Shown here piece by piece: positions 6,242-59,023 of a stretch of DNA of 64,000 nt. Location: the NCBI GenBank assembly GCA_964653455.1, contig CAZZFK010000008.1:21949-85948 (forward strand), in the 5' to 3' direction. The translations under genes and the position numbers were made by a program. The notes below the pieces were generated by a model. It was not told the DNA's origin, did no database searches, and worked only from the letters and a program-made list of their open reading frames with translations. Position 1 is the stretch's first letter. Every line of letters begins with the position of its first letter. The DNA comes from an uncultured bacterium (GTDB taxonomy: Bacteria > Margulisbacteria > Termititenacia > CAZZFK01).

Positions 6242-6299
6242 ATCTTGAAGAGGGTGGATACCCTCTTCAACGTACAATATGGGCCTAAAGGGGGAGCGC

Positions 6300-39853: not shown

Positions 39854-42800
39854 TTGAAACGCTATAATTGTTTTTTCGTCGCTGTGCTATTACTGATGTG
39901 CTGTTGTGTCGGCGGGGTCGGCGCAGCACGTCGTTCCACTGATCCGATGACGACCATTACGGACGTCCGTGCGCTCGGCATGGGGCGTGCCGGCATGGCG
40001 ACGCTCGGCGGGAGCAATGCGCTGTTCACGAACCCTGCAGGGTTGGCCAAGGTAAAGACCATGGCGGCAAGTACGTTCTCCACAAAGGTCCTGGAAGATT
40101 TCAATTATTTCGGCGTCAACGGGGCGATGAACACTGGATGGGGTGTTGTCGGGCTCGGATACGGCGGCATGAGCGTTGATGAGATCCAAGAGACGTTCCG
40201 TTACAAGATGGACGGCGAAGTCCGTAATTACTCTCTCGGGACCTATAGTGCCGGCAGTAAGGTGTTCATGGTGGGGTATGCGACAAAAGTACCGTTCCCG
40301 TTCCTGAAAGACCTTTCTCTCGGTATCGGACTTAAGAGCGCTACGGAATACATCGACGCGACCGACGCCACATCCTTTGAGACCTCTTCGATCTCTGGGT
40401 TCGGCGGCGATATCGGCGTGCTGTTCCCGTTCCGTATGTTCGGGCACGACTATGAATGCGGTATCGCCAAGATGAACGCGTTCTCGCCCCAGTTCACTGA
40501 CGATGAAGGCGGTGACCCTTCGGAATATGCGGCGATCAATCGTATCGGTATATCCACCGGTATCGATCTTTTCGGGCAGCATGTGATCGCAGCCCTCGAT
40601 AATGATAATTTCGGGACGCACCTGGGGACGGAAGTGCAATTGCCGGGCGGGTTCGCGGTACGCGCCGGGACCGACGGGACGGATTATTCCATGGGGCTCG
40701 GCCTGACGATCTATTCGGTGACCGGGTTCGACAATAAACCGCACGCCATCGCGATCGATTACGCATGGGTCGCGAACAATGCGCTCCTTGATAATGTCGG
40801 TGTGGCGGACAATCTGAACATGATCAGCTTCAGTTATCTGGGGGTCTCTCAGACCGACAAGCCGATCCTGACCTCTCCGTTAACGGGCAGGACGTTCACG
40901 GTACCGACGATCACGGTCGAGGGGAAAGCGGAGCAGGACACAGAGGTCACCGTGTATGTGAACAATGTCCCTCAAAAGGTCGTTAAGACCGAAGCGAAAG
41001 GTACGTGGAAAGCGGAAGGTATCACCCTTACGCAAGGCCGCAACGAGGTGAAGGCCTTTGCGCAAAAAATGGATTTTGCCGACAGTGAGTTCTGTGCGCC
41101 GGTCATCGCCTACGGACAACTTTCCGCTCCGGAACTCTCGACGACGATCGAGAAGCGCGGGAACCGCGTGACGATAAAAGCTTCGAGCCCGGTCGAACTG
41201 CGGCAGGTAGCCACAAAGCTGCCGAACGGAGAGACCATTGCTTTGACCTTTGATCCTCAGACCCAGTTGTGGGTCGGGACCTGGCAGGTGCCTTTTGAGT
41301 TCATGGATAAACAGGTAGCACTGCAGACGCGCGGTGTGGATACGCAGGGGAATAGGACCGATATCGTTTCTCAGAAGGTGCTCGCCAAGAGCATTATCAT
41401 GCCTGCGGATAAGACCGTGACGACAAAACAATATCTCGAGGTGAAAGGATATGCGCCTGCACGTGTTGCACATATCACGGTCGCAGGACAGGAGGTCATG
41501 CCGAGCACGGACGGATCATATACGGCGATGGTCGATCTCGCGGCTGTCGGTAAACAGAACATCGATGTGGTCATGACCGATGCGGCCGGCCGGACCAAGA
41601 CCTCTGAAGTGAGGGTCTTGCGTAAAGCTTCCGCTCCTGATGTCGGGACGGATTCCTTCGCGTATGCGGCCATCAATGATCTCTTGACCATGGGAGCGAT
41701 GCAGCCCGTGTCCGAGAATAATTTTGAACCTAAAAAGCCGATCACACGTGCCGAACTGGCGGTGCTTGTCGCTAGGGCGAAGATGCTCCCTCCGGGGACA
41801 GCGACGTTCACTGATGTGCCCGCGAACACGAGCTATGCCGGAGCGGTCAGTGCCGTCGTCGGCGCAGGTCTGCTCGGTGCCTATCCTGACGGAACGTTCA
41901 AACCGCAAGGGCTGATCACACGCGGGGAGGCTGCGGTCGTCCTGATAAAGATCTATGGCGTGGAGCTGCCGGAGGGCACACCGGAAGAGGTCTTTACGGA
42001 CGTGAAGCCGACGCATCCGCTTGCCGGGGCGATATCCGCCGCTGTCGAGAACGGTTTGATCGCTGTCGAGGACGATTCCTTCTATCCGGACCAGATGCTC
42101 GATCGTGAAACGGCGGCTTTCTGGTTCTCAAAGACCAGAGAGATGAAACAGCAGTTAAGAGAGCTGCAATCATGGCCGGACCTCAATGTGAACGGGTCGG
42201 AGCTCTCGGATATGGAACGCATGGAGGGCCAGCTTGTGGTCGATTTTGCCGATGCGCAATGGACCGCGCAGGAAGCAGCAGCAGGGCTCAAGCTCATGGA
42301 GCCGGTGGACCAGAGCATCACCTATGAGCCGTACGCGATCGTTAAAGGGCTGGTCACGCCTGCTGTTGCGGTCTCGGTGAACGGACAAGCGGTCATATTG
42401 GAGAGGAACGGTTCATTCGTCGCGGGAGTTCCTCTTGAGCTCGGGATGAACCTTATTCTTGTAGAAACACCGACCGAAAAAAGAAAGGTCAGGGTCTTGA
42501 GGGAAGCGGCGTTCACTGATGTGCCCTCCGGCAATGCCGGCGATGATATCCGAAAGCTCGGCTCTCTGGGGTATCTTGAAACGGACCGTTCGTTCTATCC
42601 GGAACAGGGCGTGACGCGACGTGAACTGGCTGTGGTGCTCGTACGTTCCAAGGAGGACCAGACCCCCAGTTCCGCTCCGCGGCTTCAGGACGTGGCGGCC
42701 GATGATCCCCAGCTGATGTACATACAACGTGCGGTCGATCTCGGCTATTTCACGGTGAGCGCGAACTATTTCATGCCGAACACGGTGGTCTCACGCGGAG

Positions 42801-44041
42801 AGGCCGCAGCGATCCTTGCCGCGTTCCAGGGGCTCACCGTCCCTCAGGCTGCGCTCACACGGAAGCCGTTCGCTGACGTTCCTGCGGAGCATCCGTACGC
42901 CAAAGCGATAGCGACGGCCCTGCAGGCGGGGATCATTCTCCCAGCGGAACAGTATTTCCCTGATGAACCGCTGACCAGACAGGACCTGGTCGATATGCTC
43001 ATGCGCACGGCGGTGATGCAATCCCGTATGAACCGTTTCATGGATTGGAACGGGTATGACATCAATAAGACTCGAGCACCGGTATTGCCCAGGAAAAAGA
43101 CCGCAGTGATCGATGTTCCGGGAAGGACCGCTCCCCGGATCGCAGAGGCCGCTGACGAGGAGACATCCGATACCTACCTGCGTTTTGCTCCGCCCATGGA
43201 GGCGCAGATGCAGCAGGGCGTCATTTATCCGCGTACGGCCGATTCGGTGGGGGTCGGAACGCCGCTCCTTTCGATCATCTCCCCCAAAGATCTTTTTGTG
43301 ACGACGCGTGCTGATATTGATGTTGCGGGTGTCGCCACTAACGGAGGCCCGGTACAGGTCAACGGTAATACCGTTGCCCTCAATCAAAAAGGTGCATTTC
43401 AGACCAGGACAGGACTGAAGCCGGGAAAGAACGTGATCACGGTAGTTTCCGCAGGGGCGACCGAAAAACGCAGGGTCTTGCGTTTGTTCACGTACAATGA
43501 TATCAGCGGTATACCCCAGAAAAAGGTCATAGAGTATCTGGCGACCCTCGGCTATTTCGCAGAAGGAACACAGTTCTATCCTTCGAAAGCGGTCGCGCGT
43601 GATGAATTGGTCACGATCGCGCTCAAAGCTGGGGGGGTCAGGCCGGGGACCCCGCTCACACAAAGTTATTCTGACGTGCCGTTGAGCTATTGGGCCGCAC
43701 CTTCAATATACGCAGCAGCGGATGCCGGCATCATCGAAAAAAAAAACACTTTTCAGCCTCAGTCTGACGTGACCCGGGGAGAGGCGGTCGCGATATTGCT
43801 CAAGGCCTTAAAGACGGGCATCCCGCAGGGGGCGTTGAAGGCCCCGGTCTTTACGGACGTTCCTATCACACATCCGTATGCTAATGCCATAGCAGTGGCC
43901 ATGTCCAAAGGTATCGTTGCGCGGACCGATCGTTTTCAACCTGATATGAAGCTGACCCGTGCGGACCTGGCCGTATGGCTCGTCAATACTGCTCCCGTGA
44001 AGGAACAGATAGTCCAATTGAGGGATTTTAAGAACACCTGA
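39854..44041 (+). CDS. Fusion protein: N-terminal FadL/PorV-like outer-membrane barrel domain + Ig-like domains + about ten SLH (S-layer homology) repeats
   Basis: Signal peptide MKRYNCFFVAVLLLMCCCVGGVGA. The N-terminal ~330 aa are paralogous to the 34505-35698 product (ALGMGRAGMATLGGSNALFTNPAGLA versus ALGSAYVGLANDINALYFNPAGLV, and GWGVVGLGY versus GWGVFGGYY). The C-terminal ~800 aa (about nt 41620-44041) carry repeated SLH units such as FTDVPANTSYAGAVSAVVGAGLLGAYPDGTFKPQGLITRGEAAVVL, FTDVPSGNAGDDIRKLGSLGYLETDRSFYPEQGVTRRELAVVL and FTDVPITHPYANAIAVAMSKGIVARTDRFQPDMKLTRADLAVWL. Confidence 0.7.
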   Translation: MKRYNCFFVAVLLLMCCCVGGVGAARRSTDPMTTITDVRALGMGRAGMATLGGSNALFTNPAGLAKVKTMAASTFSTKVLEDFNYFGVNGAMNTGWGVVGLGYGGMSVDEIQETFRYKMDGEVRNYSLGTYSAGSKVFMVGYATKVPFPFLKDLSLGIGLKSATEYIDATDATSFETSSISGFGGDIGVLFPFRMFGHDYECGIAKMNAFSPQFTDDEGGDPSEYAAINRIGISTGIDLFGQHVIAALDNDNFGTHLGTEVQLPGGFAVRAGTDGTDYSMGLGLTIYSVTGFDNKPHAIAIDYAWVANNALLDNVGVADNLNMISFSYLGVSQTDKPILTSPLTGRTFTVPTITVEGKAEQDTEVTVYVNNVPQKVVKTEAKGTWKAEGITLTQGRNEVKAFAQKMDFADSEFCAPVIAYGQLSAPELSTTIEKRGNRVTIKASSPVELRQVATKLPNGETIALTFDPQTQLWVGTWQVPFEFMDKQVALQTRGVDTQGNRTDIVSQKVLAKSIIMPADKTVTTKQYLEVKGYAPARVAHITVAGQEVMPSTDGSYTAMVDLAAVGKQNIDVVMTDAAGRTKTSEVRVLRKASAPDVGTDSFAYAAINDLLTMGAMQPVSENNFEPKKPITRAELAVLVARAKMLPPGTATFTDVPANTSYAGAVSAVVGAGLLGAYPDGTFKPQGLITRGEAAVVLIKIYGVELPEGTPEEVFTDVKPTHPLAGAISAAVENGLIAVEDDSFYPDQMLDRETAAFWFSKTREMKQQLRELQSWPDLNVNGSELSDMERMEGQLVVDFADAQWTAQEAAAGLKLMEPVDQSITYEPYAIVKGLVTPAVAVSVNGQAVILERNGSFVAGVPLELGMNLILVETPTEKRKVRVLREAAFTDVPSGNAGDDIRKLGSLGYLETDRSFYPEQGVTRRELAVVLVRSKEDQTPSSAPRLQDVAADDPQLMYIQRAVDLGYFTVSANYFMPNTVVSRGEAAAILAAFQGLTVPQAALTRKPFADVPAEHPYAKAIATALQAGIILPAEQYFPDEPLTRQDLVDMLMRTAVMQSRMNRFMDWNGYDINKTRAPVLPRKKTAVIDVPGRTAPRIAEAADEETSDTYLRFAPPMEAQMQQGVIYPRTADSVGVGTPLLSIISPKDLFVTTRADIDVAGVATNGGPVQVNGNTVALNQKGAFQTRTGLKPGKNVITVVSAGATEKRRVLRLFTYNDISGIPQKKVIEYLATLGYFAEGTQFYPSKAVARDELVTIALKAGGVRPGTPLTQSYSDVPLSYWAAPSIYAAADAGIIEKKNTFQPQSDVTRGEAVAILLKALKTGIPQGALKAPVFTDVPITHPYANAIAVAMSKGIVARTDRFQPDMKLTRADLAVWLVNTAPVKEQIVQLRDFKNT

Positions 44042-44255
44042 AGTCTTTTCTGCCGACCTTCCGCCCCGCTCAATGCGTGCTTTTTGTCACCCATTTCGTA
44101 AAAACAGTATCTTTCAGCGCAGTGGTAGTTGATGGATGCGCGTTCAGAACGTGTAAGATATCGAAGGAACGGGATCGTGAGGAGGGGGCGGTGCTGAACT
44201 GCAAGACAAGAACACGGACTTTCGAAGGTATCCTTGCCTCGCAGGTATGCAGTGC

Positions 44256-44666
44256 TTAGATCAAGCCAAGATATATCCCTGTTATCGCGAACTTCAAGAG
44301 CCAGCTGATCATGCTCAGTAATAATTTTTCATTGAACTCTTTATCTCCCCAGAGCCAACTGTTGAGCAGCAGGTATAGCATCGGGACGAAGAAGATAAAG
44401 GCATATGAAAAACTGCCGATCAGGTCCTTGCTGATGATATTGAACGCGAGCAGAAAGTGGAACGTGAACATGAGGATGAGGGCGAAGAACACCTGGATAA
44501 AGAGCTCTATCGGGATAATGAACCCGATGCGCGACTTGGCCTTTTGAACGGAACTCTTGCTCATTTTCTTTTTTGTATCGGTCTGGGTCGAGAGGAACAC
44601 CAGCAGGTCGAACAGGAACAGCAATATACCGAGCAATACGCTTTTTAAGACCAGGTCTTGTGACAT
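44256..44666 (-). CDS. Small polytopic membrane protein (136 aa), paralog of the 55754-56146 product
   Basis: Four predicted TM helices. About 45% identity to the other paralog over conserved blocks (IPIELFIQVFFALILMFTFHFLLAF versus LPIGLFMQVFFALIFLFTFRFLAIF; LLNSWLWGDKEF versus QFNNWLWLDTKR). Confidence 0.6.
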   Translation of the reverse strand: MSQDLVLKSVLLGILLFLFDLLVFLSTQTDTKKKMSKSSVQKAKSRIGFIIPIELFIQVFFALILMFTFHFLLAFNIISKDLIGSFSYAFIFFVPMLYLLLNSWLWGDKEFNEKLLLSMISWLLKFAITGIYLGLI

Positions 44667-44897
44667 ATGAGAGCCCCCTTAAAAGAAGTATATGACCGAC
44701 GCGCATATTATATCCCATAGGTACTGTGAACGCACCTGTTTTTTGAAGGTCCCATCAGTATCTTATTTTTGTTCTGATGAAGTACAGATAAATGCTGAAA
44801 TATGTGCATAAAGACATGTATAAAATGTGGTGTATGTGGGTATATCTCCAGTGAATGGTAGTTCCAGCTCGTTTGATAAAAGAAAAGAGGTATTGCG

Positions 44898-45683
44898 ATG
44901 GGTAGCGGTATTAATAAGCGCATGCTTGTCATCTCGCTGATATTCGGCATTGTCACGTTCATGGGGACAACGTTGTACCTTGGTTCGGTCTCCAAGGACC
45001 AGAAATTCAAAGCAGAATTGATCTCTGTCATCACCGCGAAGGCGAACATCCCTCCGCGCACGGTGATCACCAAGGATATGGTCCAGAACAAGTCCATCCC
45101 TCGGCAATATGCGCTGCCCGGAGTGTTCGTGCAGCCGCAGGAGGTCATCGGCAAGATCACGAATACGCCGATCATCCTGGGGGAGCAGATCGTGTCCGGG
45201 AAGGTCTCGGTACGCGGACAGCAGCTCGGGTTGTCTTTCATCGTTCCGAAGAATAAGCGTGCGGTATCCGTTGAGGTGGATGCCGCGGCCAGTATCGCCG
45301 GTCTTATCAAACCGGGGGACATGGTGGATATCCTTTGTACGCTTACCGGCGACTTTAACCGTACGGTCACGGTACTGCAGAACGTGCAGATATTGGCCAT
45401 CGATCGTGCAATGGACACCAAGGACCAAAAGAATGAAGGCAAGGTGGACCGGTCCGTGATAGCGACCTTTGCTCTCGATCTCCGGGATGCGGAGAAAGTG
45501 GTACAGGCTTCGACAGCGGGCCAGTTGCGGCTGGTGTTGCGGGCCACGGATGATCATGATCTGGTCCAGTCCTTTGGTACGACCACCACAGAGCTGTTGC
45601 CGTACCGTCGTTCAGCCGGTGGCGGGTCGGCATATTCCATCCGTGTCGTAAAAGGGACGGATGTGAGCAGAAAAACGTTCTGA
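44898..45683 (+). CDS. cpaB: Flp pilus assembly protein CpaB/RcpC (SAF-domain periplasmic protein)
   Basis: N-terminal TM segment, then a SAF-like region (…ANIPPRTVITKDMVQNKSIPRQYALPGVFVQPQEVIGKITNTPIILGEQI…) and the RcpC/CpaB C-terminal domain. It is the first gene of the Tad cluster. Confidence 0.85.
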   Translation: MGSGINKRMLVISLIFGIVTFMGTTLYLGSVSKDQKFKAELISVITAKANIPPRTVITKDMVQNKSIPRQYALPGVFVQPQEVIGKITNTPIILGEQIVSGKVSVRGQQLGLSFIVPKNKRAVSVEVDAAASIAGLIKPGDMVDILCTLTGDFNRTVTVLQNVQILAIDRAMDTKDQKNEGKVDRSVIATFALDLRDAEKVVQASTAGQLRLVLRATDDHDLVQSFGTTTTELLPYRRSAGGGSAYSIRVVKGTDVSRKTF

Positions 45684-45694
45684 TAAGGAGCAGT

Positions 45695-46972
45695 ATGATG
45701 CGGATACGATCGATCATGTATGGACTGATGCTGACGGTGCTCATCGCCGGAGGTCTTGCTGCAGCTCCGACAGTTCCGTCGGTCGGCAGCGAGAATATGA
45801 TCTATATCACGGCAGGGACCTCAAAGCTCATCAAGCTGGATTATGATGTACGCAATATGGCGGTCGGAAATCCGGAAGTATCGGATATCCTGATCATGTC
45901 CAAACGGGAGATACTGGTCAACGGAAAAGCGGCCGGTATCACCACGCTCACGCTGTGGGATGAGGCACGGCATCATGATTACAACGTGATCGTCAATAAA
46001 AGCTCGGAAGAGCTCGTCTTTAAAAGATATCAACTGTACAACATCCCTCTTATTTTCCCTGAATGGGAGGATGCGAACAATATCTTCAAAGTGAAACAAA
46101 AACCTATCGAGGAGAACGTCAATGATATCAAGAACATTCTGTCCGGTTATTTAAAACCGGAGCAATATTCGGTCAATCCCTGGCTGAACGCCGTGTTCGT
46201 GGTCGCCTCCGCGGAGGACCATAAACTTATCGAACAGCTCATCACCAATGTCGATGTGAAACAAAAACAGGTACTGCTCAAGGTCGAGGTCTATGAGATA
46301 AAACTGAACAATAAGCAGGATTATGGTCTCGAGCTGTTCTATCAAAAGGACCAATCGACGGCGCAGTATAATAAGGGCGGTGACGGGTTCACCTATACCT
46401 TTTCCAGTGCTGCCGATCTTGTCGAATCATCGACGCATATTTTCAAGCTGATGCTCTCTGAAGGCAAGGCAAAGCTCCTGGCCACACCGAAGATACTGTC
46501 AGTCAATAACCGATATTCCCTGCTCAGTTCCGGCGAAAAATTCCCCCTGGTACAGACCGATAATCAGGGGAACAAGACCGTCGAGTATATCTATACCGGC
46601 ATCGTCCTTGGCGTCATCCCGAACATCAATGAGAACGGTGATATCGATTGCTGGATATACAGCGACGCCAGTTCGGTCGCGGGATATACGGATGATGATT
46701 ATCCGATCGTGCGAACACGCAGCACTAAAAGCGAGGTGCGGGTCAAGAACAACGGCATGCTCATCATGGGCGGTCTGATACAGGAGAACGATAATATCAC
46801 CACGCATAAATTGCCTATCTTAGGCGATCTGCTCGGCTGGGTGCCGGTGCTCGGGAGCATCGTCAAGAATGATGAGATAGAGAAAGTGCGTACGGAGATT
46901 GTGGTGACGCTGCGTCCTACGGTCATCTTTGATGATGCGGATGCGACAGCACAACTGAGCGAGGTGCAGTGA
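45695..46972 (+). CDS. cpaC: Tad secretin CpaC/RcpA (type II/III secretion system secretin family)
   Basis: Signal peptide. C-terminal secretin domain (…KLLATPKILSVNNRYSLLSSGEKFPLVQTD…GGLIQENDNITTHKLPILGDLLGWVPVLGSIVKNDEIEKVRTEIVVTLRPTVI). Confidence 0.85.
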   Translation: MMRIRSIMYGLMLTVLIAGGLAAAPTVPSVGSENMIYITAGTSKLIKLDYDVRNMAVGNPEVSDILIMSKREILVNGKAAGITTLTLWDEARHHDYNVIVNKSSEELVFKRYQLYNIPLIFPEWEDANNIFKVKQKPIEENVNDIKNILSGYLKPEQYSVNPWLNAVFVVASAEDHKLIEQLITNVDVKQKQVLLKVEVYEIKLNNKQDYGLELFYQKDQSTAQYNKGGDGFTYTFSSAADLVESSTHIFKLMLSEGKAKLLATPKILSVNNRYSLLSSGEKFPLVQTDNQGNKTVEYIYTGIVLGVIPNINENGDIDCWIYSDASSVAGYTDDDYPIVRTRSTKSEVRVKNNGMLIMGGLIQENDNITTHKLPILGDLLGWVPVLGSIVKNDEIEKVRTEIVVTLRPTVIFDDADATAQLSEVQ

Positions 46973-48168
46973 TGAACATCGCGGTATTTGAATCCGATAA
47001 AAGCGTACACACTGCGCTGCTCTCGGCCGCCGGCGAGGATTTTCATATACATACGTTCTTTCAGAGCGAAGATGAGCTGGTGAAGTCCGTTCCGGTGCAA
47101 AAGATAGATGTCCTGGTAGTGAACATAGACCTTATCACCGATGCGGTGCGGGCAGGCGTGAAGGACGTCATCCCGTACATCATCGTGCTTGCGGCGGCCT
47201 CTTCGATACAAGCTTTCAAAGCGTCCCTGGATATCGGCGCGCGTGATCTGCTGACCGTCCCGTTCGAGCTGGCCGAGATGACGGCGGCGCTGCGCAAAGC
47301 CCAGCATTTTCTTTCGGCACAGCGTTCCGCCGCAAAAGCACCGGGGGCCAGGAACGGCAAGATCTCGGTGTTCATGAGCAGTAAGGGCGGGGTCGGCAAA
47401 TCGATGCTTGCGACCAATACGGCATTGCTCCTGCAGAAAGAGCCCGGGACCAAGGTCCTGCTGCTTGATACGGTCACTCGTTTCGGTTCGACGGATATAC
47501 TGATCGATCTGAGCGAAAAAAAATCCATGGGTCTCATTCCCGTGACCATCGAGGATTATGACTCCTACTGGCAGGAGGTAGAGGATAATATCATCTCTCA
47601 CGGGAGCGGCCTGCATCTTTTGATCGCCGGGGACCGGGCGGAAGATCCGTTGACCGTCCAGAAGCTCCGTTCCGTGCTGACCTCAGTGAAGGACCACTAT
47701 GATCACATCATCATCGATACGGAGAGCTATTTCAATGACCTGAACCTGGCCCTCCTTGAGGTCGCGGACTTTGTGTTCGCGGTGAGCACGTTCGATATCG
47801 CGGCGATAAAGAACCTGAACCTGGGGCTTGAGACCGTGCGGTCCCTGTATTTTTCCACGGATAAGATCAAGATCGTCATCAATCAGTTCGATAAGAACAA
47901 TGAATTGACGGTCGCCGAACTCGAACGCTATATCAAATATAAGGTCACGAGCCTTATTCCCTTCGATCGGGAGACAGTGATCAGGTCCATCAATAATGGC
48001 ACGCCCTTCGTTATTGAAGCTCCGCAGGCGGAGATCTCCCAGGCCGTGAAGGGCCTGGCGGATTGTATCCTGGGGCGGTCCTGCGCATTGAGCGTCCCGG
48101 AGGGCAGTTCTGCTGCGGCATCGCAGAACTGGCTCAAGAGTTTCGTGCATATATTCGGGGAGAAGTGA
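46969..48168 (+). CDS. cpaE: CpaE/TadZ pilus-assembly ATPase (degenerate receiver domain + MinD/ParA-family P-loop)
   Basis: N-terminal receiver-like domain lacking the acceptor Asp. Deviant Walker A SSKGGVGKSMLATNTA. It overlaps the cpaC stop by 4 nt. Confidence 0.8.
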   Translation: MMNIAVFESDKSVHTALLSAAGEDFHIHTFFQSEDELVKSVPVQKIDVLVVNIDLITDAVRAGVKDVIPYIIVLAAASSIQAFKASLDIGARDLLTVPFELAEMTAALRKAQHFLSAQRSAAKAPGARNGKISVFMSSKGGVGKSMLATNTALLLQKEPGTKVLLLDTVTRFGSTDILIDLSEKKSMGLIPVTIEDYDSYWQEVEDNIISHGSGLHLLIAGDRAEDPLTVQKLRSVLTSVKDHYDHIIIDTESYFNDLNLALLEVADFVFAVSTFDIAAIKNLNLGLETVRSLYFSTDKIKIVINQFDKNNELTVAELERYIKYKVTSLIPFDRETVIRSINNGTPFVIEAPQAEISQAVKGLADCILGRSCALSVPEGSSAAASQNWLKSFVHIFGEK

Positions 48169-48171
48169 TCC

Positions 48172-49653
48172 ATGTCCTTTCTTGACCGTTTGAACACCAA
48201 CGAGAACACATCATCTCACGGTCCTGAGGGAGCGAGCAAGGCCAAGCCTGTGCCTTCACCCCAGATGGAGCGTGCGCGCGAACGTACCGCTCAGCTCATC
48301 AACGACCTTGAAAAGAACGCACAGCCGCGGCCGGAGAGCGTGGTCCATGACGGGAACGCCCGCAGGGATTTTCTGCTCAAGGTCCTTGATATTCACCGTG
48401 CCCTGATCAATGAGTCGGGCCTGGATATCAATAAGTTCAATATCACGACCAAGGATGCCGATGAGTTCAAACAGATACGGACCACGATCGAAAAAGAGGT
48501 CCTCAACGTCATCGAGCTCAAGAACCTCAATTATTCCCGAAAAGAAAAAACGGAGATCATCGAAGCGGTGATCAATGAAACGATAGGATTAGGCCCTATC
48601 GAGGACCTAGTGAATGACCAGTCGATCAATGAGATCATGGTCAATGGACCGTCCAAGGTCTATGTGGAACGGGACGGCAGGATACAGCTCACTCCGGTCG
48701 TTTTTTACGATGAGGACCATGTGCGCCGTATCATTGCCCGCATTGTCAGCAAGATCGGCAGGCGCATCGATGAAGGTATGCCTATGGTGGACGCGCGTCT
48801 GAAGGACGGGTCACGCGTGAACGCGATCATTCCGCCCCTTGCCCTGAGCGGGTCAACGCTCACTATCAGGAAATTCTCGGAGAAAACACTGTCCTCCAAG
48901 GACCTGATCAAGTTCGGGTCCATCAGTCCTGCGATCGACGAGTTCCTCAAGACCTGCGTGAAAGCCAAGCTCAATATCATCGTTTCCGGGGGTACGGGCT
49001 CAGGTAAAACGACATTGCTCAATGTACTTTCTTCGTTCATTCCGAACACCGATCGTATCATAACGATAGAAGATTCCGCCGAGCTCAAGCTCGATCAGGA
49101 ACATGTCATCACGCTTGAAACGAGACCCCCGAACATCGAGAACACCGGAGAGATCACGATCCGTGACCTGGTGCGCAATTCTCTGCGTATGCGTCCGGAC
49201 CGTCTGATCGTCGGCGAGGTGCGCGGCGGCGAGGCATTGGATATGCTCCAGGCCATGAACACAGGGCACGACGGGTCCATGACGACCGCCCATGCGAACA
49301 CGCCGCGCGATATGATCGCCAGGCTCGAGACCATGGTGCTCATGGCAGGTATTGAGCTCCCGGTGAAGGCGATACGTCAGCAGATCTCTTCAGCGTTCAA
49401 TCTGATCATTCAGCAGAGCCGTTTACAGGACGGGTCGCGTAAGGTCGTGAAGATCACGGAGCTGTGCGGTATGGAACAGGATACGGTCCTGCTCAAGGAC
49501 CTGTTCGTGTTCAATCAGACAGGCTATAACGATCGTACGAAGAAAGTGGAAGGACTGTTCACACCCACGGGTATGACCCCGGCTTTCATTCCGAGGCTTG
49601 AATCCCTCGGGTTTTCGTTCCCGCAGGGGTTGTTCCTTCCGGTCACGGAGTGA
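48172..49653 (+). CDS. cpaF: CpaF/TadA secretion ATPase (VirB11/GspE family)
   Basis: Walker [17 protein letters not shown], Asp box, Walker B and His box ([13 protein letters not shown]) in a 493-aa protein. Confidence 0.92.
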
Positions 49654-49659
49654 GCCGCC

Positions 49660-50586
49660 ATGATAATCCTCATCTATATCCTGTTGTTGGCGTCACTTGC
49701 GGCCATAGGTATCACCATCTATAACGTCGGGAGCAGTCAGACCTCGGTCGTGCGTCGCCGGCTCGCCATGCTCCAAAAAAAGAACGCAGGTCCTGCGCAT
49801 GCTCATTCGACACTGGCGGCCAAGAAACGGGGCGTGTTCGAACAGAAGATCCAGGAGAGCATAGACCTTTTCCATAAATTAGGGATAGAGATATCGGTCC
49901 GGGAAGTGATGCTCCTTAACGGCATTTCTTATATCGTGGTCTTTTTAATGATGTTCCTGGTCAGCTCAAATGTGTTCGCTGCTTTTCTGCTCGGGTTCAT
50001 CGGCGTAGGCGTGCCCTATATGGTCCTTTCCTTCATCGCTCAACAACGTACCAAAGCGTTCGAGAAATTGTTCGGGGACGCCCTGTATCTTATGGCGAAC
50101 ACGTTGAAATCCGGTTTCAGTTTTCGGCAGGCCCTGCAGATCATCGCGACCGAGATGCCCTCGCCGATCTGTGATGAGTTCGAGCTCCTTAATCAGGAGA
50201 TCAACTGGGGGTTGCCGGTGAACGAAGCCATGAGCAATCTTGCAAAGCGCATGCCCAATGATCATGTGAACCTGTTCGTGACCGCGATCACGATACAGAG
50301 CGAGGTCGGCGGGTCTCTTTCCGAGATCCTGGGCAAGATCGCCGAGGCGATCCGGACCAAAGATGAGCTTCGGGGCGAGGTCAAGGTCCTGACCGCTCAA
50401 GGGAAGGCATCGGGGCTTATCGTCGGCCTTATGCCGTTCTTGATCTCGATGATGGTATTCTTCGTCAATCCGTCATATATCATGAAATTGTTCACGACGA
50501 CGATAGGACTTATCATGGTGGGTGTTGCGCTTGTCATGGAAGCCATCGGGGTGTTCGCGATCAAGGTGATGGTGAACATCGAATAA
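49660..50586 (+). CDS. tadB: Tad pilus inner-membrane platform protein TadB (GspF-like)
   Basis: 308-aa polytopic membrane protein with a T2SSF-like cytoplasmic segment, in the cpaF-tadB-tadC order. Confidence 0.8.
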   Translation: MIILIYILLLASLAAIGITIYNVGSSQTSVVRRRLAMLQKKNAGPAHAHSTLAAKKRGVFEQKIQESIDLFHKLGIEISVREVMLLNGISYIVVFLMMFLVSSNVFAAFLLGFIGVGVPYMVLSFIAQQRTKAFEKLFGDALYLMANTLKSGFSFRQALQIIATEMPSPICDEFELLNQEINWGLPVNEAMSNLAKRMPNDHVNLFVTAITIQSEVGGSLSEILGKIAEAIRTKDELRGEVKVLTAQGKASGLIVGLMPFLISMMVFFVNPSYIMKLFTTTIGLIMVGVALVMEAIGVFAIKVMVNIE

Positions 50587-50597
50587 CGGGGGGCCGT

Positions 50598-51494
50598 ATG
50601 ATCGTCTATGCGTTGATAACGATGTTGTGCATCATGGCCGTCATCATGCTCTCGTATTTTCTGTACGAGTCGAGCAAGCACAGTTATTTCATTAAGAAGC
50701 GTTTGAGCAAGGTCGTCGCGACCGACGGGTACGTTTCCCCTGCAGTCGCCAACAGGAGCCATCTGACAGAGCTGCTTTCCAAGCGTACGGAAATGCTGAT
50801 CGCCCGTTTCGTGCCGGCCAATATCGTCAAGAACCTGGAACGTAAGATCCGGACGGCAAGTATCCCGAATTTCACCCTCGCGCAATATGTCCTGCTCAAG
50901 GTGATCATCGTAGGGCTCTTGCTGATCTTTGTTCCGCTCTATTCCGTGCTGCTGGGCATGAAGCTGAACCAGGGTATCTTCCTGATACTGTTGTTCGCCG
51001 GTGCTTTTTTCCCGGACCTGATGCTCAAGTCGGCGATTGATAAACGCCACAAGACGATCATCAGGGAAATGCCGAACTTCATCGATCTGCTGAGAGTGTG
51101 CATCGAGGCGGGCATGGACCTGGAAAGCGGGCTCAATAAGGTCGTTGAAAAATCAAAAGGTCTGCTGCGTGATGAGGCCCGACAGACGACCATCGAGATA
51201 CGGATGGGCAAACCGCTCGCGGAAGCACTGCAGGACCTCTCGGACCGTATCTATCTTGATGATTTTTCCGCGTTCATCACGCTGGTCATACAGGCCCATC
51301 AGATGGGCATCAGTATAGCCAATGTGCTCAAGTCCCAGGCCTATCAGATCAATCTGAAATATGTGCAGACGCTCCGGGCCAAAGCGGCAAAGGTCCCCGT
51401 TATGATCATCGTGCCCATGGTCATGTTCATTCTCCCCGCGCTCTTGGTCGTTATCCTTGGTCCCGCTATAATACAGATCATAGATGTCTTTTAA
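50598..51494 (+). CDS. tadC: Tad pilus inner-membrane platform protein TadC (GspF-like)
   Basis: 298-aa polytopic membrane protein paralogous in topology to TadB, with a T2SSF-like domain, immediately downstream of tadB. Confidence 0.8.
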   Translation: MIVYALITMLCIMAVIMLSYFLYESSKHSYFIKKRLSKVVATDGYVSPAVANRSHLTELLSKRTEMLIARFVPANIVKNLERKIRTASIPNFTLAQYVLLKVIIVGLLLIFVPLYSVLLGMKLNQGIFLILLFAGAFFPDLMLKSAIDKRHKTIIREMPNFIDLLRVCIEAGMDLESGLNKVVEKSKGLLRDEARQTTIEIRMGKPLAEALQDLSDRIYLDDFSAFITLVIQAHQMGISIANVLKSQAYQINLKYVQTLRAKAAKVPVMIIVPMVMFILPALLVVILGPAIIQIIDVF

Positions 51495-51813
51495 TATCTT
51501 TTGCGGACCCTCCTGTATCATCCCGAAAGCAGAACGCTGTGAAAGCTTCTGGTCGCGTTTGCGCGGCTATATGTTCCGTTCACGGCCGCTCCCGTACGCG
51601 CTGGTATTCCCGAAGTGTACGATGATACATATGTTCTTTGTGTTCCTGCCGCTCGCGGTGATCGTTTGTGATGAGAATAAGAAGGTACTGGACGCATTCC
51701 ATATCGGTCCGTGGCGCGTGAGCCGGTTTTATCCGCGGGCAGGCTATTTGATAGAAACGGCAGACCTGGGTGTCCTTCGGCAGGTCCGCACGGGGGATAT
51801 CCTCACATTTTGA
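51484..51813 (+). CDS. DUF192 (COG1430) family protein
   Basis: 109 aa. LPLAVIVCDENKKVLDAFHIGPWRV…YLIETADLGVLRQVRTGDILTF matches the DUF192 pattern (…D…g.V…..p……..a.yvLE…G……i..GD.v). It overlaps tadC by 11 nt. Confidence 0.55.
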   Translation: MSFNIFCGPSCIIPKAERCESFWSRLRGYMFRSRPLPYALVFPKCTMIHMFFVFLPLAVIVCDENKKVLDAFHIGPWRVSRFYPRAGYLIETADLGVLRQVRTGDILTF

Positions 51814-52336
51814 ACAGGATCGTGCAGAGCATACCGGCAGCAAGTGCGATGCTGTAGGGGAAACGATATCCGCTGCTTTGTACGTTCGTCATGTCAAATT
51901 TGAGCTTATGGAGCAGCGCGAGAGTGAGCGAGGTCAGCTGCGCGCCTATCGCACCGCGAACGTTCTTGTTCACGATCATGACATACAAGGATACCAGTCC
52001 TCCCGCAATGGCCCCGTACAGCCCGGTCCAGCCGACGAACGGCCAGCCTTGAAAAGCGCCGACCATGGCGAGCAATTTGAGGTCCCCGGCACCAAGTCCT
52101 CCGAAAGAGAAAGGGATGAAGAACAGTATCAGGCCCAGGGCGAGCCCCTGGAGGCTGAACAGCAGCCCGCTTTCCAGGTGCGGGCTGGCTTGAAATATCG
52201 TGTTCAGGATAAGACCTGCGGTGATACCCGAGAACGTGACCTTATTGAATATCTTGCGTTCTTTCAGGTCCGTATAGATGCAGATGCCGACAAAACAGCA
52301 CGCGAGGACGGTTCGGATGATGATAAAAATGTTCAT
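51803..52336 (-). CDS. cpaA: Prepilin peptidase, A24 family (TadV/CpaA-like)
   Basis: Polytopic membrane protein of the A24 prepilin-peptidase type (ICIYTDLKERKIFN…GLGAGDLKLLAMVGAFQGW). The start is set at MNIFIII, ATG 52336. The ORF track extends to 52387. Confidence 0.75.
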   Translation of the reverse strand: MNIFIIIRTVLACCFVGICIYTDLKERKIFNKVTFSGITAGLILNTIFQASPHLESGLLFSLQGLALGLILFFIPFSFGGLGAGDLKLLAMVGAFQGWPFVGWTGLYGAIAGGLVSLYVMIVNKNVRGAIGAQLTSLTLALLHKLKFDMTNVQSSGYRFPYSIALAAGMLCTILFKM

Positions 52337-53661
52337 TCGACGAGCACCACAAAACCGCTGTCGCTGTCGCTCATGCCTTCGTACCACATCGTCCAGAGAG
52401 AAACGTCGGTCTCTCCCGCGTGATATGTGGCGTACCAGGTCCCGCCGGTGTAGCTGTTCGGGATCTGGAAGACATCCTCGGACCAGGCGCTGTTGCTGGA
52501 AAGTGTACCGGTCCAGGTCTGGGCGAGCGTATCGCAGGAATAAATGATCGAGGTGCTGCCTATTTCGGTATCGAACTTGTTGATATGCATGTTGGTGCCG
52601 GCGCCCTGAGCAGGTACATAGCCGAGCCTCATGACCACGTTCCCTGTCTTATTGAAACGTATCGGGAGCGCCCCGGTCGAAGTGATGCTGGTGCCGTTAT
52701 TGGCGTTAAAGCTCGGGGTGTTCGGCCCCGCGCGCAGACTGAACCCGTTCGCGTTATAGCCTGAGCCGGACTTTACCTGGATGCGGTATTTGCCTGTGCC
52801 GTAGGTCGCCGTATCAATAGTGAAGCCGGAAGGATTGACCCATTTATTGTTCGTCAGACTGCTGCCGCCTACGGTATAGGTCGCGAGACACACATCATCG
52901 GTGTAATCCTTTGGTGTACTGTCCGGTCTGTAGAGTTTATAGGTCGTCGTGGTATAGGCGCCGGAGCTGTCGTAATTCCCGTAGCTATCGGGGTCCCAGA
53001 TCTCCACTTTCATGATACTGGTGCCGTTGGTGCTCGCGTAATCGGAAGGGACGTATACCCAATAATTATAGCCGTCCGGGTTATAGTTCGGATTTTCGTC
53101 CCCGTTATCAAGGTCCAGTACGGAGTACGGGTCACCGTGTTCATAGGGAGAATTCTGACCGCGGACGCTCAGTGTGACATTGGGATTGGTGGCGCCGTAA
53201 GTGCCTGCCAGGTTGATGCTGATCGGTACGTAGGCGTTGAATTGCGCGGTCGAAAAGACAGTGATGGTCCGTGAGCTGAGGCCGATGAGCTGGCCGAAGA
53301 AGAACCGAACGTTGTGCGTTATCGTGACCCGGAACCAGTTGGCGTTGCTCCCTGTCGGATTGACCATCAAAGTTATGGTGGTCCCGTCCACTCCGTCAGT
53401 GTACCCGTTCTCGGTGGCGTATATGGCCGCTTGTGTCTGTGCTTCCGCTTCGTCAGGCATTTCCTGTCCTCCCGCGAGCGCTGCAGCATCGGCCGCACGT
53501 TTCATGCGGTGTCGTTCGAGGGATATCATACCGATATCGATGACCAGTCCCGAGATTAGGATCGCTGTGGTCAGAAAAAAGACCATAAGCACCAGGATCT
53601 GGCCTTTTTTGTGCGTTCTTTTTTCTGTTGAGAGGAGGTTCATGAGCCTACCTTCTTTCAT
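52333..53661 (-). CDS. TadG-like pilus-associated protein (TadE/TadG N-terminal domain + large beta-rich extracellular region)
   Basis: N-terminus KKGQILVLMVFFLTTAILISGLVIDIGMISLERHRMKRAADAAALAG matches the Tad_N/TadG-like hydrophobic N-terminal domain, followed by about 380 aa rich in Thr/Gly/Asn/Tyr. The alternative start at 53643 would remove the overlap with tadE. Confidence 0.65.
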   Translation of the reverse strand: MKEGRLMNLLSTEKRTHKKGQILVLMVFFLTTAILISGLVIDIGMISLERHRMKRAADAAALAGGQEMPDEAEAQTQAAIYATENGYTDGVDGTTITLMVNPTGSNANWFRVTITHNVRFFFGQLIGLSSRTITVFSTAQFNAYVPISINLAGTYGATNPNVTLSVRGQNSPYEHGDPYSVLDLDNGDENPNYNPDGYNYWVYVPSDYASTNGTSIMKVEIWDPDSYGNYDSSGAYTTTTYKLYRPDSTPKDYTDDVCLATYTVGGSSLTNNKWVNPSGFTIDTATYGTGKYRIQVKSGSGYNANGFSLRAGPNTPSFNANNGTSITSTGALPIRFNKTGNVVMRLGYVPAQGAGTNMHINKFDTEIGSTSIIYSCDTLAQTWTGTLSSNSAWSEDVFQIPNSYTGGTWYATYHAGETDVSLWTMWYEGMSDSDSGFVVLVE

Positions 53662-54076
53662 AGCGCATGGTCGCTCTGGTCGTGATGGTATCCGGCATGA
53701 TGATGTCTAAAAAACCGGTCAGGGTTTCAAAAGGCTGAGCGTTTATTGCTACGGTGATGGATTCGATATTGCTTTGGTCCGGGTTCAGAGAGACGGCCAC
53801 TCTGCCGGTAATGCCCGAGCGTATGTTCGCAGGCAGCAGTGCTGTCCTGTCCGCGATGATGGTCTGAATGTCGGAGGTCCGGGATTCTGAATTGGTGGAC
53901 CAGTCGGAATAGGTGACGGCGAAACGCACGGCATCCCGTACGGCGGTATCCATGATCATGGTCGAATAGAGATAGAAGCCCCAGTCGAGCACACCCAGCA
54001 TTAATGTGATAAAAACGGTGAGGACAAGAGCGAACTCAACGATAGATTGGCCGAATTTTTTTTTATTTTTTTTCAT
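53648..54076 (-). CDS. tadE: TadE-like pseudopilin/minor pilin
   Basis: MKKNKKKFGQSIVEFALVLTVFITLMLGVLDWGFY matches the TadE family N-terminus (…G.a.VEFAlv.P.l..l..g..e.g). Confidence 0.7.
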   Translation of the reverse strand: MKKNKKKFGQSIVEFALVLTVFITLMLGVLDWGFYLYSTMIMDTAVRDAVRFAVTYSDWSTNSESRTSDIQTIIADRTALLPANIRSGITGRVAVSLNPDQSNIESITVAINAQPFETLTGFLDIIMPDTITTRATMRYERR

Positions 54077-54163
54077 AGATGATAGGTATTAAATAAAAAA
54101 GGGGAGCTTTGACGGTGTCGAAAACTCCCCCTTTAACACAGTTTTGTGCTGATGTATGCAGAA

Positions 54164-54334
54164 CTAGGTCCCTGCAGGCAGATTATTCGCTGTGTTGTTG
54201 AACAAGGTAGAGATGCGATTGCCAAGCAATGTGATGGCCGCAACTGCTACGACCGCGATCAACGCGATGATCAGTGCGTATTCTACGAGCCCTTGACCGG
54301 ACTCATCTTTCCATAATTTCTTCAGAACTTCCAT
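54164..54334 (-). CDS. flp: Flp/Fap-family pilin
   Basis: MEVLKKLWKDESGQGLVEYALIIALIAVVAVAAITLLG contains the canonical Flp prepilin motif (G/XXXXEY) and a hydrophobic stretch. The start is set at ATG 54334; the ORF track begins at 54370. Confidence 0.8.
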   Translation of the reverse strand: MEVLKKLWKDESGQGLVEYALIIALIAVVAVAAITLLGNRISTLFNNTANNLPAGT

Positions 54335-54440
54335 AATGTCACCCCCTTTGACGTATAAGTATGATACCAAATCTTATGCCGAAATCAACTTTTTCTTCTC
54401 TGTTCCTGTTCTGTTGCTCCTTTCCGGGGCGGAAATCAGT

Positions 54441-55532
54441 TCATCCTCTTTCTTCGCCTGCGATAGTGATATAGTTCATGGTCGTTGAGCTTTGGTCCTG
54501 AGTGTCGGTCACGATCAGGATCACGGAGAATGTTCCACTGAAGTTGTACATATAGGTGACCGTTTGTCCGGTGAGCACCTCGTCGAGTTTGGTCGTGTAT
54601 CCGTCCTCATTGCGGCTGTAGATCTGCCAGACATAGGAGGCGACAGGTCCTTCGATACCGACCGCGGTGCAGGAGAAGGTCACGGTTTGTGACACGGTGG
54701 GCATGCTCGGGGTCCAGGTCACGGATGATATGACCGGAGGTATTTTTACCCCTATGCCTACGCCGCCAACGACCCCCTGGGTGATGGATGCCCCCCATTG
54801 ATCGGTGACGGTCAATTTAGGATAGTATAATCCCGTTCTGGCATAGGAATGCGCTGTGCCGACGGATTCTGCTCCGTTGGCCGTCGTTCCATCCCCGAAA
54901 TCCCATAGATATGTAAGGCTCGCTATGTCCGCGGCATCGGGGTCCGTAGCGCTGCCCGTGAACGTGATCGATGTGCCGTGGCTGGCGGTAGGTGGTGTTG
55001 CGGTGCAGCTATTGATGATCGGGCGGTCATTGCGTCCGGTGAGGACCACGGGACCGTTCGAGTCCGCCATAAGTGAGGATAAGGCCTGGCCCGATGATGC
55101 GCCTTCTTTATCGTAAATGATCAGGGAAAAATCAAATGAGCCGTTCCAGCAATATGTATGCCTGGGGGTCTTTTCATTTGAGGTGGTCCCGTCACCAAAA
55201 TCCCAGCAATACGTAAGGTTGCTGGTCGGTTCGTTGGGGTCCAGAACGAACGCCTGGAAATCATAGCTTTCCGTTTTAGTGGTTGTTCCTGCTGCTGTGC
55301 ACCATATCCTTACTATCGATGGCGCTACATTGGAAGAACTGTTCGTCTCAGAGATCTCGCTCGTAGTCCGTCCGCACCCAATAACAATGAGGAGCAGGCA
55401 TATTACAAGAGAAAGGAGCATGAAAGAACGTATGCGTGCTTCCTTATATATACTCCGTATGCTTTTTATGGGCAACGTACTATCGGATTTCATTGTCATT
55501 TCCCTCATACAAGGTCCGGATATGTGCACCAA
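54441..55532 (-). CDS. PKD-domain lipoprotein (two or more PKD repeats) adjacent to the pilin gene
   Basis: PKD signatures YCWDFGDGTTSNEKTPRHTY…IIYDKEG and YLWDFGDGTTANGAESVGTAHSY…LTVTDQWG. Lipoprotein-like signal with lipobox LLLIVIGCG. The true start is probably internal (MLLSLVICLL…). Confidence 0.7.
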   Translation of the reverse strand: MVHISGPCMREMTMKSDSTLPIKSIRSIYKEARIRSFMLLSLVICLLLIVIGCGRTTSEISETNSSSNVAPSIVRIWCTAAGTTTKTESYDFQAFVLDPNEPTSNLTYCWDFGDGTTSNEKTPRHTYCWNGSFDFSLIIYDKEGASSGQALSSLMADSNGPVVLTGRNDRPIINSCTATPPTASHGTSITFTGSATDPDAADIASLTYLWDFGDGTTANGAESVGTAHSYARTGLYYPKLTVTDQWGASITQGVVGGVGIGVKIPPVISSVTWTPSMPTVSQTVTFSCTAVGIEGPVASYVWQIYSRNEDGYTTKLDEVLTGQTVTYMYNFSGTFSVILIVTDTQDQSSTTMNYITIAGEERG

Positions 55533-55753
55533 TATTATCGATACCTTTCAACTAAAAAATGCAGGTATTATTAATGGTGTGTTTTTATTCGCAGTATCAG
55601 TATACCCATTCACGGTCATTATTATACGAAAATATACATCGATATTATATGATGTATTTATTCTTGTTCTTTCGGTGAGATGCAATTAATTATTGGCGTT
55701 CCGCACAAGGATATACTATAATCAACTTCGCATGTAATAAGGAGAAGGAACAT

Positions 55754-56146
55754 ATGCCGATAGTCGCTAAAGGTATAGTACTGGGTCTCATTATTTTTAC
55801 GATAGATATGCTGGTCTACGCGATATGCGCGATGATGTATTTTGATAAGACCGAGCGGGAAGAACTTTCCGCAAAACTGAAATACACGCTTCCGATAGGT
55901 CTTTTTATGCAGGTCTTTTTCGCGCTGATATTCCTGTTCACGTTCCGCTTCCTGGCCATATTCAAGGCGCTCGATCAGTCCGTAGGCGGCGGCCTGTATT
56001 TTGCATATATCCTCTTTTTGCCGCTGCTCTATATGCAGTTCAATAACTGGTTGTGGTTGGATACCAAGCGGACGACAACGTTCTTGAACATCACTGCATG
56101 GGGCATTAAACTTGCCATATGCGGTGTTTTTGTTGCTTTTTTGTAA
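55754..56146 (+). CDS. Small polytopic membrane protein (130 aa), paralog of the 44256-44666 product
   Basis: See the paralog entry at 44256-44666. It has an AAGGAGAAGGAA RBS and mirrors the other paralog in inverted orientation across the Tad locus. Confidence 0.6.
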   Translation: MPIVAKGIVLGLIIFTIDMLVYAICAMMYFDKTEREELSAKLKYTLPIGLFMQVFFALIFLFTFRFLAIFKALDQSVGGGLYFAYILFLPLLYMQFNNWLWLDTKRTTTFLNITAWGIKLAICGVFVAFL

Positions 56147-56206
56147 CGAGAACGGTCGTTACTGTTTTCTGAACTTTTTATTATGTTCATATTTGATTAG
56201 CACTCT

Positions 56207-56233
56207 TGACAAACGAGTGCTAGCACTATATAT
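56207..56233 (+). promoter_or_regulatory. CIRCE element (HrcA operator) upstream of groES
   Basis: TTAGCACTC-ttgacaaac-GAGTGCTAg matches the CIRCE consensus TTAGCACTC-N9-GAGTGCTAA at 17/18 positions, about 125 nt upstream of groES. Confidence 0.75.
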
Positions 56234-56260
56234 TCTCAAGCGCTAAAACTGAGTGGCAAG

Positions 56261-56335
56261 TGACGAGTGGCAAGTGGCACATCAGGTCGTTCATAGAACA
56301 CGCCACCTGTCACATTCCACGAGACACTTCTTTAA
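56261..56335. repeat. Intergenic GAGTGGCAAGTG x2 … GCCACCTGTCAC motif (instance 4)
   Basis: gagtggcaagtgacgagtggcaagtggcac contains a direct 12-nt duplication. A downstream imperfect inverted partner cgccacctgtcacattccacgagacac follows. It lies between CIRCE and the groES RBS. Confidence 0.4.
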
Positions 56336-56356
56336 AAATTGGAAGGAGGGAAAACA

Positions 56357-56662
56357 ATGGCAAATGCAAAAGGTAAAGTAAAAATTCGGCCGTTGGCGGA
56401 TCGGGTGGTCATACTTCCGCTGGCAGAGGAGGCGAAGACCAAAAGCGGTATCGTTCTTCCTGATAATGCTAAGGAAAAACCTCAACAAGGGGAGGTCGTC
56501 GCTATCGGTGCCGGACGTACGCTTGATAACGGTACGAAGGTAGCTCCTGATGTTAAAGAAGGAGATATCGTTGTGTATTCCAAGTACAGTGGCGATGAGA
56601 TCAAGATCGATGGTGTGGAATATAAGATAATCGAAGAGAGAAGTATTTTGGCTGTTCTGTAA
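56357..56662 (+). CDS. groES: Co-chaperonin GroES
   Basis: [51 protein letters not shown] is canonical GroES. GGAAGGAGGG RBS. Start at ATG 56357. Confidence 0.97.
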
Positions 56663-58946: not shown

Positions 58947-59023
58947 AGGTGGGTAGCTCAACTAGGTAGAGCAACGGTCTCCAAAACCGTAGGTTGCAGG
59001 TTCGATTCCTGTCCCACCTGCCA
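58947..59023 (+). tRNA. trnW: tRNA-Trp (anticodon CCA)
   Basis: A 77-nt cloverleaf by hand-fold. Acceptor aggtggg/cccacct, D-arm gctc-aactaggta-gagc, anticodon arm acggt-ctCCAaa-accgt, T-arm gcagg-ttcgatt-cctgt (one G-U pair), discriminator G, encoded CCA. It sits in the classical tRNA-Trp position before secE-nusG. Confidence 0.85.

Follow-up and report, generated by a model that had tools for sequence, protein, structure and literature searches.

In this study, we analyzed a 64-kb stretch of DNA (64,000 nucleotides of contig CAZZFK010000008.1, hereafter the window) from an uncultured member of Candidatus Margulisiibacteriota, in which a Tad/Flp pilus locus lies between two genes for small membrane proteins, here called A and B (Table 1). 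A sequence-only reading of this region had described two outward-facing, inverted and paralogous open reading frames (ORFs) at the ends of the locus, and both ORFs were found there. Their paralogy extended over the full length of the proteins (BLASTP: E 1e-27, 34% identity, 61% positives), although the identity of about 45% first given was an overestimate, MAFFT alignment also yielding only 35%. The shared blocks F-x-Q-V-F-F-A-L-I-x-x-F-T-F-x-F-L and N-x-W-L-W-x-D were seen in both A and B, and the description of both as proteins of approximately 130 amino acids (aa) with four transmembrane helices agreed with AlphaFold2 models that contained four long helices each. As had also been noted, each gene is divergent from the neighboring tad operon: A from rcpC, across a gap of 231 bp, and B from the gene of a PKD lipoprotein, across approximately 221 bp. 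A GGGGG ribosome-binding site is located about 8 nt before the ATG of A, and an AAGGAG ribosome-binding site lies 3' of the promoter-like site of B.

The cluster enclosed by A and B is a complete, bona fide Tad/Flp type IVc locus in all core respects. It spans positions 44898-55532, i.e., 10.6 kb rather than the 9.5 kb originally estimated. Pfam searches identified the Flp/Fap pilin (PF04964, E 4e-10), the A24 prepilin peptidase (PF01478, E 5e-15), TadA (T2SSE, E 1e-66), two T2SSF matches corresponding to the platform, TadZ (AAA_31, CbiA and ParA domains) and RcpA (Secretin and T2SS-T3SS_pil_N), as well as RcpC and, for the TadE/TadG pseudopilins, TadE, Tad and Tad_C matches.

Table 1. Features of the A/B-Tad region of the window, and SigB-like motif sites in related loci (L numbers; positions are those of each locus).
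Feature	Position	Strand	Description and basis
A-type gene, four-helix membrane protein	44256-44666	minus	136 aa; faster-evolving paralog; ORF and A clade in neighbor-joining tree
B-type gene, four-helix membrane protein	55754-56146	plus	130 aa; highly conserved paralog; ORF and B clade in neighbor-joining tree
tad operon 1	44898-51813	plus	rcpC, secretin rcpA, tadZ, tadA, tadB, tadC, DUF192-like gene; Pfam
tad operon 2	51803-55532	minus	PKD lipoprotein, flp pilin, tadE, tadG, A24 prepilin peptidase; Pfam
TATAAT -10 box, A's own promoter	44707-44712	minus	read from sequence
SigB-like motif GTATAA-N14-GGGTAT upstream of rcpC operon	44818-44843	plus	motif match; kept in L003, L009, L015
SigB-like motif GTATAA-N14-GGGTAT upstream of PKD-flp operon	55602-55627	minus	motif match; kept in L003, L010, L015
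Sigma-70-like promoter of B, TTGGCG-18-TATAAT	55693-55722	plus	sequence
Terminator-like hairpin directly after B	56143-56169	plus	sequence
SigB-like motif, L015	4161-4187, 14766-14792, 16786-16812
SigB-like motif, L003	3631-3656, 9920-9945
SigB-like motif, L009	609-635
SigB-like motif, L010	660-686
SigB-like motif, L011	67-93

First, we compared A and B with their counterparts at related loci. The identity of B between the window and L015, L002 and L003 was 67%, 61% and 65%, respectively, a level exceeded only by TadA (72/66%) and Flp (78/80/60%); TadB, TadC, RcpA, TadZ, TadV and TadE were all less conserved between loci. B is under strong purifying selection. A was approximately 41% identical to its ortholog in L002. 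The ribosome-binding sites, together with conservation at the protein level, indicate that both A and B are genuine genes under constraint.

These results bear on one origin suggested by the sequence-only reading, namely a duplication at the time when a Tad island was inserted, which would have left A and B behind as remnants or as repeats at the boundaries of the island. The inverted placement of the two genes at the two ends of the locus would fit such an event, and the variation of the flanks among genomes is compatible with a locus moving as a unit. However, the sole DNA inverted repeat across 44000-56400 was 74 nt long at 76%, and it fell inside the coding block of the conserved second transmembrane helix. 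Since no extended inverted repeat of the kind expected for terminal repeats or a duplication scar was present beyond coding blocks, the A and B genes are not insertion scars. Moreover, both ORFs are intact, each with a ribosome-binding site and a promoter, and the A and B clades described below are both old, with orthologs from diverged genomes. Neither an integrase nor a tRNA gene was found at the locus borders (the sole tRNA lies at 58947, beyond groESL), the GC content of the locus equals that of its surroundings, and the neighborhood is chromosomal backbone (FlhB/FlhA, pyrD, hisA, NusG, L1, L10 and GroESL). Thus, an origin as island scars is effectively refuted already and keeps next to no probability.

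Second, we examined whether A and B belong to any described family. The sequence-only reading had recognized none, and the searches bore this out. No match above threshold was obtained for either protein in Pfam, NCBIfam, PHROGs or PADLOC, and the pilus families of Pfam and NCBIfam gave no significant match that would place A or B among known Tad or type IV pilus components. The 18 family members examined against Pfam showed no consistent family even at E<=1. The best Pfam score of A, to DUF6560 (PF20197), was 16 bits (E 0.014) and thus under the gathering threshold of 27.8 bits; given this score and the fact that only two of the 18 members matched, the proteins do not belong to DUF6560. A family profile found no PDB sequence at E<=10, and its hhalign comparison with TadV, TadB and TadC of the same locus gave probabilities of at most 0.5%, i.e., no relationship. 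Foldseek searches with both models against PDB, and with the A model against BFVD, returned best E values of 0.6-2.9 and template modeling (TM) scores of at most 0.41, none of which was significant. A literature search retrieved nothing relevant on Tad pili of Margulisbacteria or on small Tad accessory membrane proteins.

The family is also very small: in 15 billion proteins, it accounts for approximately 25 sequences. Profile searches recovered 18 proteins from 5.8 billion protein clusters when word-seeded, and six from 1.84 billion representatives when run exhaustively with HMMER. Only one of 185,579 GTDB species (one genome each) possessed the family, the Candidatus Margulisiibacteriota single amplified genome (SAG) AM-324-J15, which added one locus, and a scan of metagenome contigs added one further contig of 1.1 kb. 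The neighbor-joining tree of 26 sequences split cleanly into a B clade with short branches (n=17) and an A clade with long branches (n=9), and the window and L002 each placed one gene in either clade. The presence of this split across diverged genomes indicates that the A/B duplication is older than the divergence of these genomes. The family is undescribed and confined to a sub-lineage of Candidatus Margulisiibacteriota. Together with the gene contexts below, we consider it highly likely that the A/B family is real, new and linked to Tad.

Third, gene context was analyzed for all family loci with usable flanks. Informative flanks were available for seven independent contigs, and Tad genes adjoined a family member in every one of them, so that homologs do flank Tad loci elsewhere, a point on which the sequence-only reading had proposed a check. 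Both A and B were present in the window and in L002. In L002, the flp-tadE-tadG block has been relocated to the opposite side; A keeps its divergent orientation to rcpC, and the prepilin peptidase gene is now the divergent neighbor of B. Only B was present in L015/L001 (the SAG) and in L003, adjoining the PKD gene in both cases, with GT2, DUF6798 and PMT_2 genes upstream of rcpC in the SAG and DUF6798 and PMT_2 genes between the two tad blocks in L003. An A gene divergent from rcpC was found in L009 and a B gene divergent from the PKD gene in L010, and L013 contained the most divergent, A-like member, convergent with tadG, with no B within its 6-kb contig. Adjacency to Tad was kept through three different locus rearrangements, and the outer genes differed at every locus (SLH protein and GroES, lipase, Fe-hydrogenase, FecCD or pseudouridine synthase). 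Among TadC homologs, a gap separated approximately 16 close relatives (at least 39% identity) from the remainder (at most 35%), and no family member was detected by tblastn or hidden Markov model searches in the two nearest outgroup Tad loci, both on long contigs (L016 and L017). Thus, the family appears to be co-extensive with one Tad locus type. The earlier suggestion of a component pair specific to this pilus is therefore supported with respect to specificity, by the adjacency in all informative contigs and the confinement to this clade, but not with respect to an obligate pair, because B occurs alone at two loci and an A-like gene alone at one.

Two further observations were made at these loci. 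In L012, a 1.1-kb contig, an A-type gene directly follows the 3'-terminal part (1-349) of a transposase gene of the DDE (rve) type, which may reflect the insertion of an insertion sequence into the A-rcpC intergenic region of that organism. Small ORFs with a single transmembrane segment are convergent with B and directly downstream of it in L015 (15281-15505, minus strand, 74 aa) and L002 (10397-10612, minus strand, 71 aa); the two are barely alike (E 0.002) and have no counterpart in the window.

Alternatively, the function of these lineage-specific membrane proteins may have nothing to do with pili, being, e.g., general envelope or transport housekeeping, and inherited synteny would be what keeps them beside Tad. 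Consistent with this, each of the two genes is a monocistronic unit of its own and has a promoter of sigma-70 type, in which both differ from the tad operons; either of them can be missing; and the family is restricted to one narrow clade, which limits the phylogenetic independence of the contexts. However, simple synteny does not readily account for the fact that the outer neighbors change at every locus while the adjacency to Tad survives three rearrangements, or for a conservation of B on par with that of core Tad proteins. On balance, we regard a pilus-unrelated function as unlikely.

To describe the proteins themselves, AlphaFold2 models were built with the family alignment. The predicted local distance difference test (pLDDT) and predicted TM (pTM) scores were 87.2 and 0.77 for A and 87.9 and 0.77 for B, and both proteins were predicted to be four-helix bundles with the same topology, in which the hairpin of helices 1 and 2 protrudes past the hydrophobic core. 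Five invariant polar residues (D20, Q58, Y98, N102 and K125 in A numbering) fall within the predicted transmembrane helices and would form a putative buried polar cluster. The bias of K+R assigned loops 1 and 3 to the cytoplasm in all 26 A and B sequences, which indicates that A and B share one topology, and both termini are predicted to be outside. On the other hand, the charge of loop 1 differs between the clades: it is strongly basic in all A-clade proteins (A residues 27-46, 7-8 K/R) and mixed to acidic in the B clade (B residues 28-45, 2-5 K/R versus 2-6 D/E). This difference could reflect A-B pairing, with which it is compatible, although it is no proof.

In a more specific proposal, A and B would be the first polytopic inner-membrane subunits of a Tad machine. 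As homo- or hetero-oligomers, they would make up a four-helix module in which a cluster of invariant, buried Asp, Gln, Tyr and Lys residues works in the membrane, e.g., by gating or chaperoning the Flp pool, by coupling the platform to the envelope, or by ion conduction. We hold this proposal only tentatively and consider it rather doubtful in this form.

The transcription signals of the region were then compared between A/B and the tad operons. A TATAAT box was found 25-45 nt upstream of the start in every A/B ortholog examined; given their own promoters and the hairpin after B, A and B appear to be independent monocistronic units. The tad operons are preceded by a different motif, located near the tad end of both intergenic regions, which had two matches in the window compared with 0.04-0.07 expected by chance, and which was conserved in five related loci: L003, L009, L010 and L015 have it before rcpC, the PKD gene or both, and L011, whose contig contains no PKD gene, has it before the B gene. 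It matches 11 of the 12 consensus positions of SigB-type (group 3 sigma factor) promoters of B. subtilis, with the spacing of PrsbV, the consensus being that of B. subtilis and the host a member of Margulisiibacteriota; the published SigB consensus is GTTTAA-N15(+/-2)-GGGTAT (PMC9847131). This similarity of promoter sequence suggests that the tad operons may be driven by a group-3 (SigB/SigF-like) sigma factor; no sigma factor gene was identified among the genes of the window. The motif was also considered as an operator for A and B, a role that was rejected, as it precedes rcpC where GT2 replaces A as well as an unrelated gene of L015. The motif belongs to the tad operons and not to A or B. 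The latter gene of L015 (16832-17857) is a 341-aa ORF without Pfam domain or window homolog, with the motif 20 nt before its start, and is possibly an extra member of the tad regulon.

Such an arrangement raises the possibility that A and B are membrane signaling or regulatory proteins, divergent from their targets as classical regulators are, which would modulate the alternative-sigma pathway of the tad promoters. Indeed, both genes are back-to-back with tad promoters that bear the SigB-like motif and have promoters of housekeeping type themselves. However, the soluble loops comprise only approximately 10-25 residues, Pfam and NCBIfam scans detected no anti-sigma, kinase, helix-turn-helix or partner-switching domain, and the A-like gene of L013 is convergent with tadG instead of being divergent from a promoter. 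Thus, we consider a regulatory function very unlikely.

The two A-less relatives share a conserved trio of GT2, PMT_2 (GT-C type) and DUF6798 genes, which adjoins the Tad locus or lies within it (L015 1-4027; L003 3684-6926 and 12042-12758). The trio may have taken the place of A, or it may be a sign that the pilin or the envelope is glycosylated. By analogy with known small transporters, A and B themselves might be a flippase or transporter resembling GtrA or ArnE/ArnF, with a lipid-linked sugar as its substrate for the glycosylation of Flp, the PKD lipoprotein or the S-layer. The size of about 130 aa, the four transmembrane helices with an invariant acidic residue in the first one and the paralogous pair are reminiscent of ArnE/ArnF, and the presence of the trio would fit as well. 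However, neither the window, over its 64 kb, nor L002 contains a homolog of the trio, and yet both keep A and B. Furthermore, none of the 18 members matched GtrA (PF04138), SMR (PF00893) or EamA at E<=1 in Pfam, and Foldseek against PDB (best E 1.9) returned no SMR entries and no match to EmrE-type structures. Because A and B share the same topology, an antiparallel pair, as in paired SMR proteins, is not what the K+R bias predicts. Taken together, a flippase function appears quite unlikely.

The most likely role of A and B is that of a lineage-specific inner-membrane accessory of the Tad machine; that they take part in pilus biogenesis or function has, in our estimate, roughly even chances. 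In this view, A and B are functional, anciently duplicated four-helix inner-membrane proteins of ~130 aa tied to the distinctive Tad (type IVc) locus of this lineage. B would be the core subunit; A, which evolves faster and can be dispensed with, would be a partner and may pair with B. Inside the membrane, the targets of this module would be the function of the pilin, platform or peptidase, or else the stability of the machine. Whereas the analysis shows real, paralogous genes with promoters of their own, a new and narrow family next to Tad genes, a strongly conserved B and a common predicted topology, a physical or functional part of the proteins in pilus biogenesis, like any A/B heteromer, is only inferred.

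Several points weigh against an accessory role. Gene context is the only source of the proposed role, with no homology to a known pilus component or characterized protein, and described Tad machines, such as the in situ model from Caulobacter, are without a small polytopic subunit of this kind (PMC13170226). The ordinary TATAAT boxes of A and B, compared with the SigB-like motif of the tad operons, mean that co-regulation is not evident. In addition, two loci lack A, the 6-kb L013 contig lacks B, and in L012 an A-type gene lies behind the transposase 3' end with no tad gene visible, a context that is uninformative. Finally, the sample is small (seven informative contexts from one narrow clade), and part of the adjacency could for this reason be inherited synteny.

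Other genes of the window concern the cell envelope and motility. Beyond A lies a gene for a 1,395-aa protein with five SLH and four Glucodextran_B domains (39854-44041, plus strand), which adjoins A and is convergent with it, and which fits the idea that the outer envelope of this lineage is SLH-anchored. Downstream of B are groES and groEL. The best named hits of the GroEL protein came from Margulisiibacteriota (83%) and, after these, Saganbacteria (77%), so that the window probably belongs to Margulisiibacteriota. A strong promoter-like site (TTGACA-17-TATATT, 56206-56234) precedes groES (56339) and is overlapped by a CIRCE-like inverted repeat, TTAGCACTC-N9-GAGTGCTAG (56197-56223), an HrcA operator. 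The regions 17-2745 and 6279-7757 encode FlhA, FlhB (its C-terminal part) and a response regulator dependent on sigma-54; with these flagellar export genes and the Tad locus, the organism encodes both flagella and Tad pili. A giant ORF of 6,306 aa (15320-34240, plus strand) carries FG-GAP repeats and a right-handed beta-helix in its first 3,000 aa, based on which it probably encodes a surface protein or adhesin of very large size. On the minus strand, 9369-13340 is occupied by an ORF of 1,323 aa without Pfam match.

Tad pili are widespread machines for adhesion and surface sensing, whose parts list is deemed largely known from a few Proteobacteria. Here, in an uncultivated phylum related to cyanobacteria, the core machine has gained a PKD lipoprotein and a conserved membrane-protein family that escapes classification, and it appears to be driven from an alternative-sigma-type promoter. 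If A and B are real subunits, type IV filament machines would show a wider architectural diversity and the family would provide a marker for a Tad subtype; if they are polytopic subunits in the sense proposed above, the Tad machine of Margulisiibacteriota would contain a mechanistic element that no Tad system studied so far possesses. As the family is very narrowly distributed and its hosts are uncultured, its practical impact is limited.

With regard to known systems, small paired proteins with four transmembrane helices, such as ArnE/ArnF, paired SMR proteins (e.g., EbrAB) and GtrA, have approximately 110-140 aa, a conserved acidic residue in the first transmembrane helix and a paralogous partner. 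A and B resemble ArnE/ArnF, EbrAB and GtrA only in size and helix count. They differ from paired transporters of this type in that their genes are 11 kb apart and not in one operon, and in that both proteins have the same predicted orientation. As to the pilus itself, the full core set is common to the window locus and to the canonical Tad/Flp systems (A. actinomycetemcomitans tad, Caulobacter cpa and P. aeruginosa rcp/tad) according to Pfam. The Caulobacter in situ model comprises CpaC, CpaD, CpaI, CpaB, CpaG/H, CpaE, CpaF, minor pilins, peptidase and pilin (PMC13170226). Compared with the canonical systems, TadD, RcpB, CpaD and a CpaI-type partner were not detected in the window locus, which instead carries the PKD lipoprotein together with A and B.

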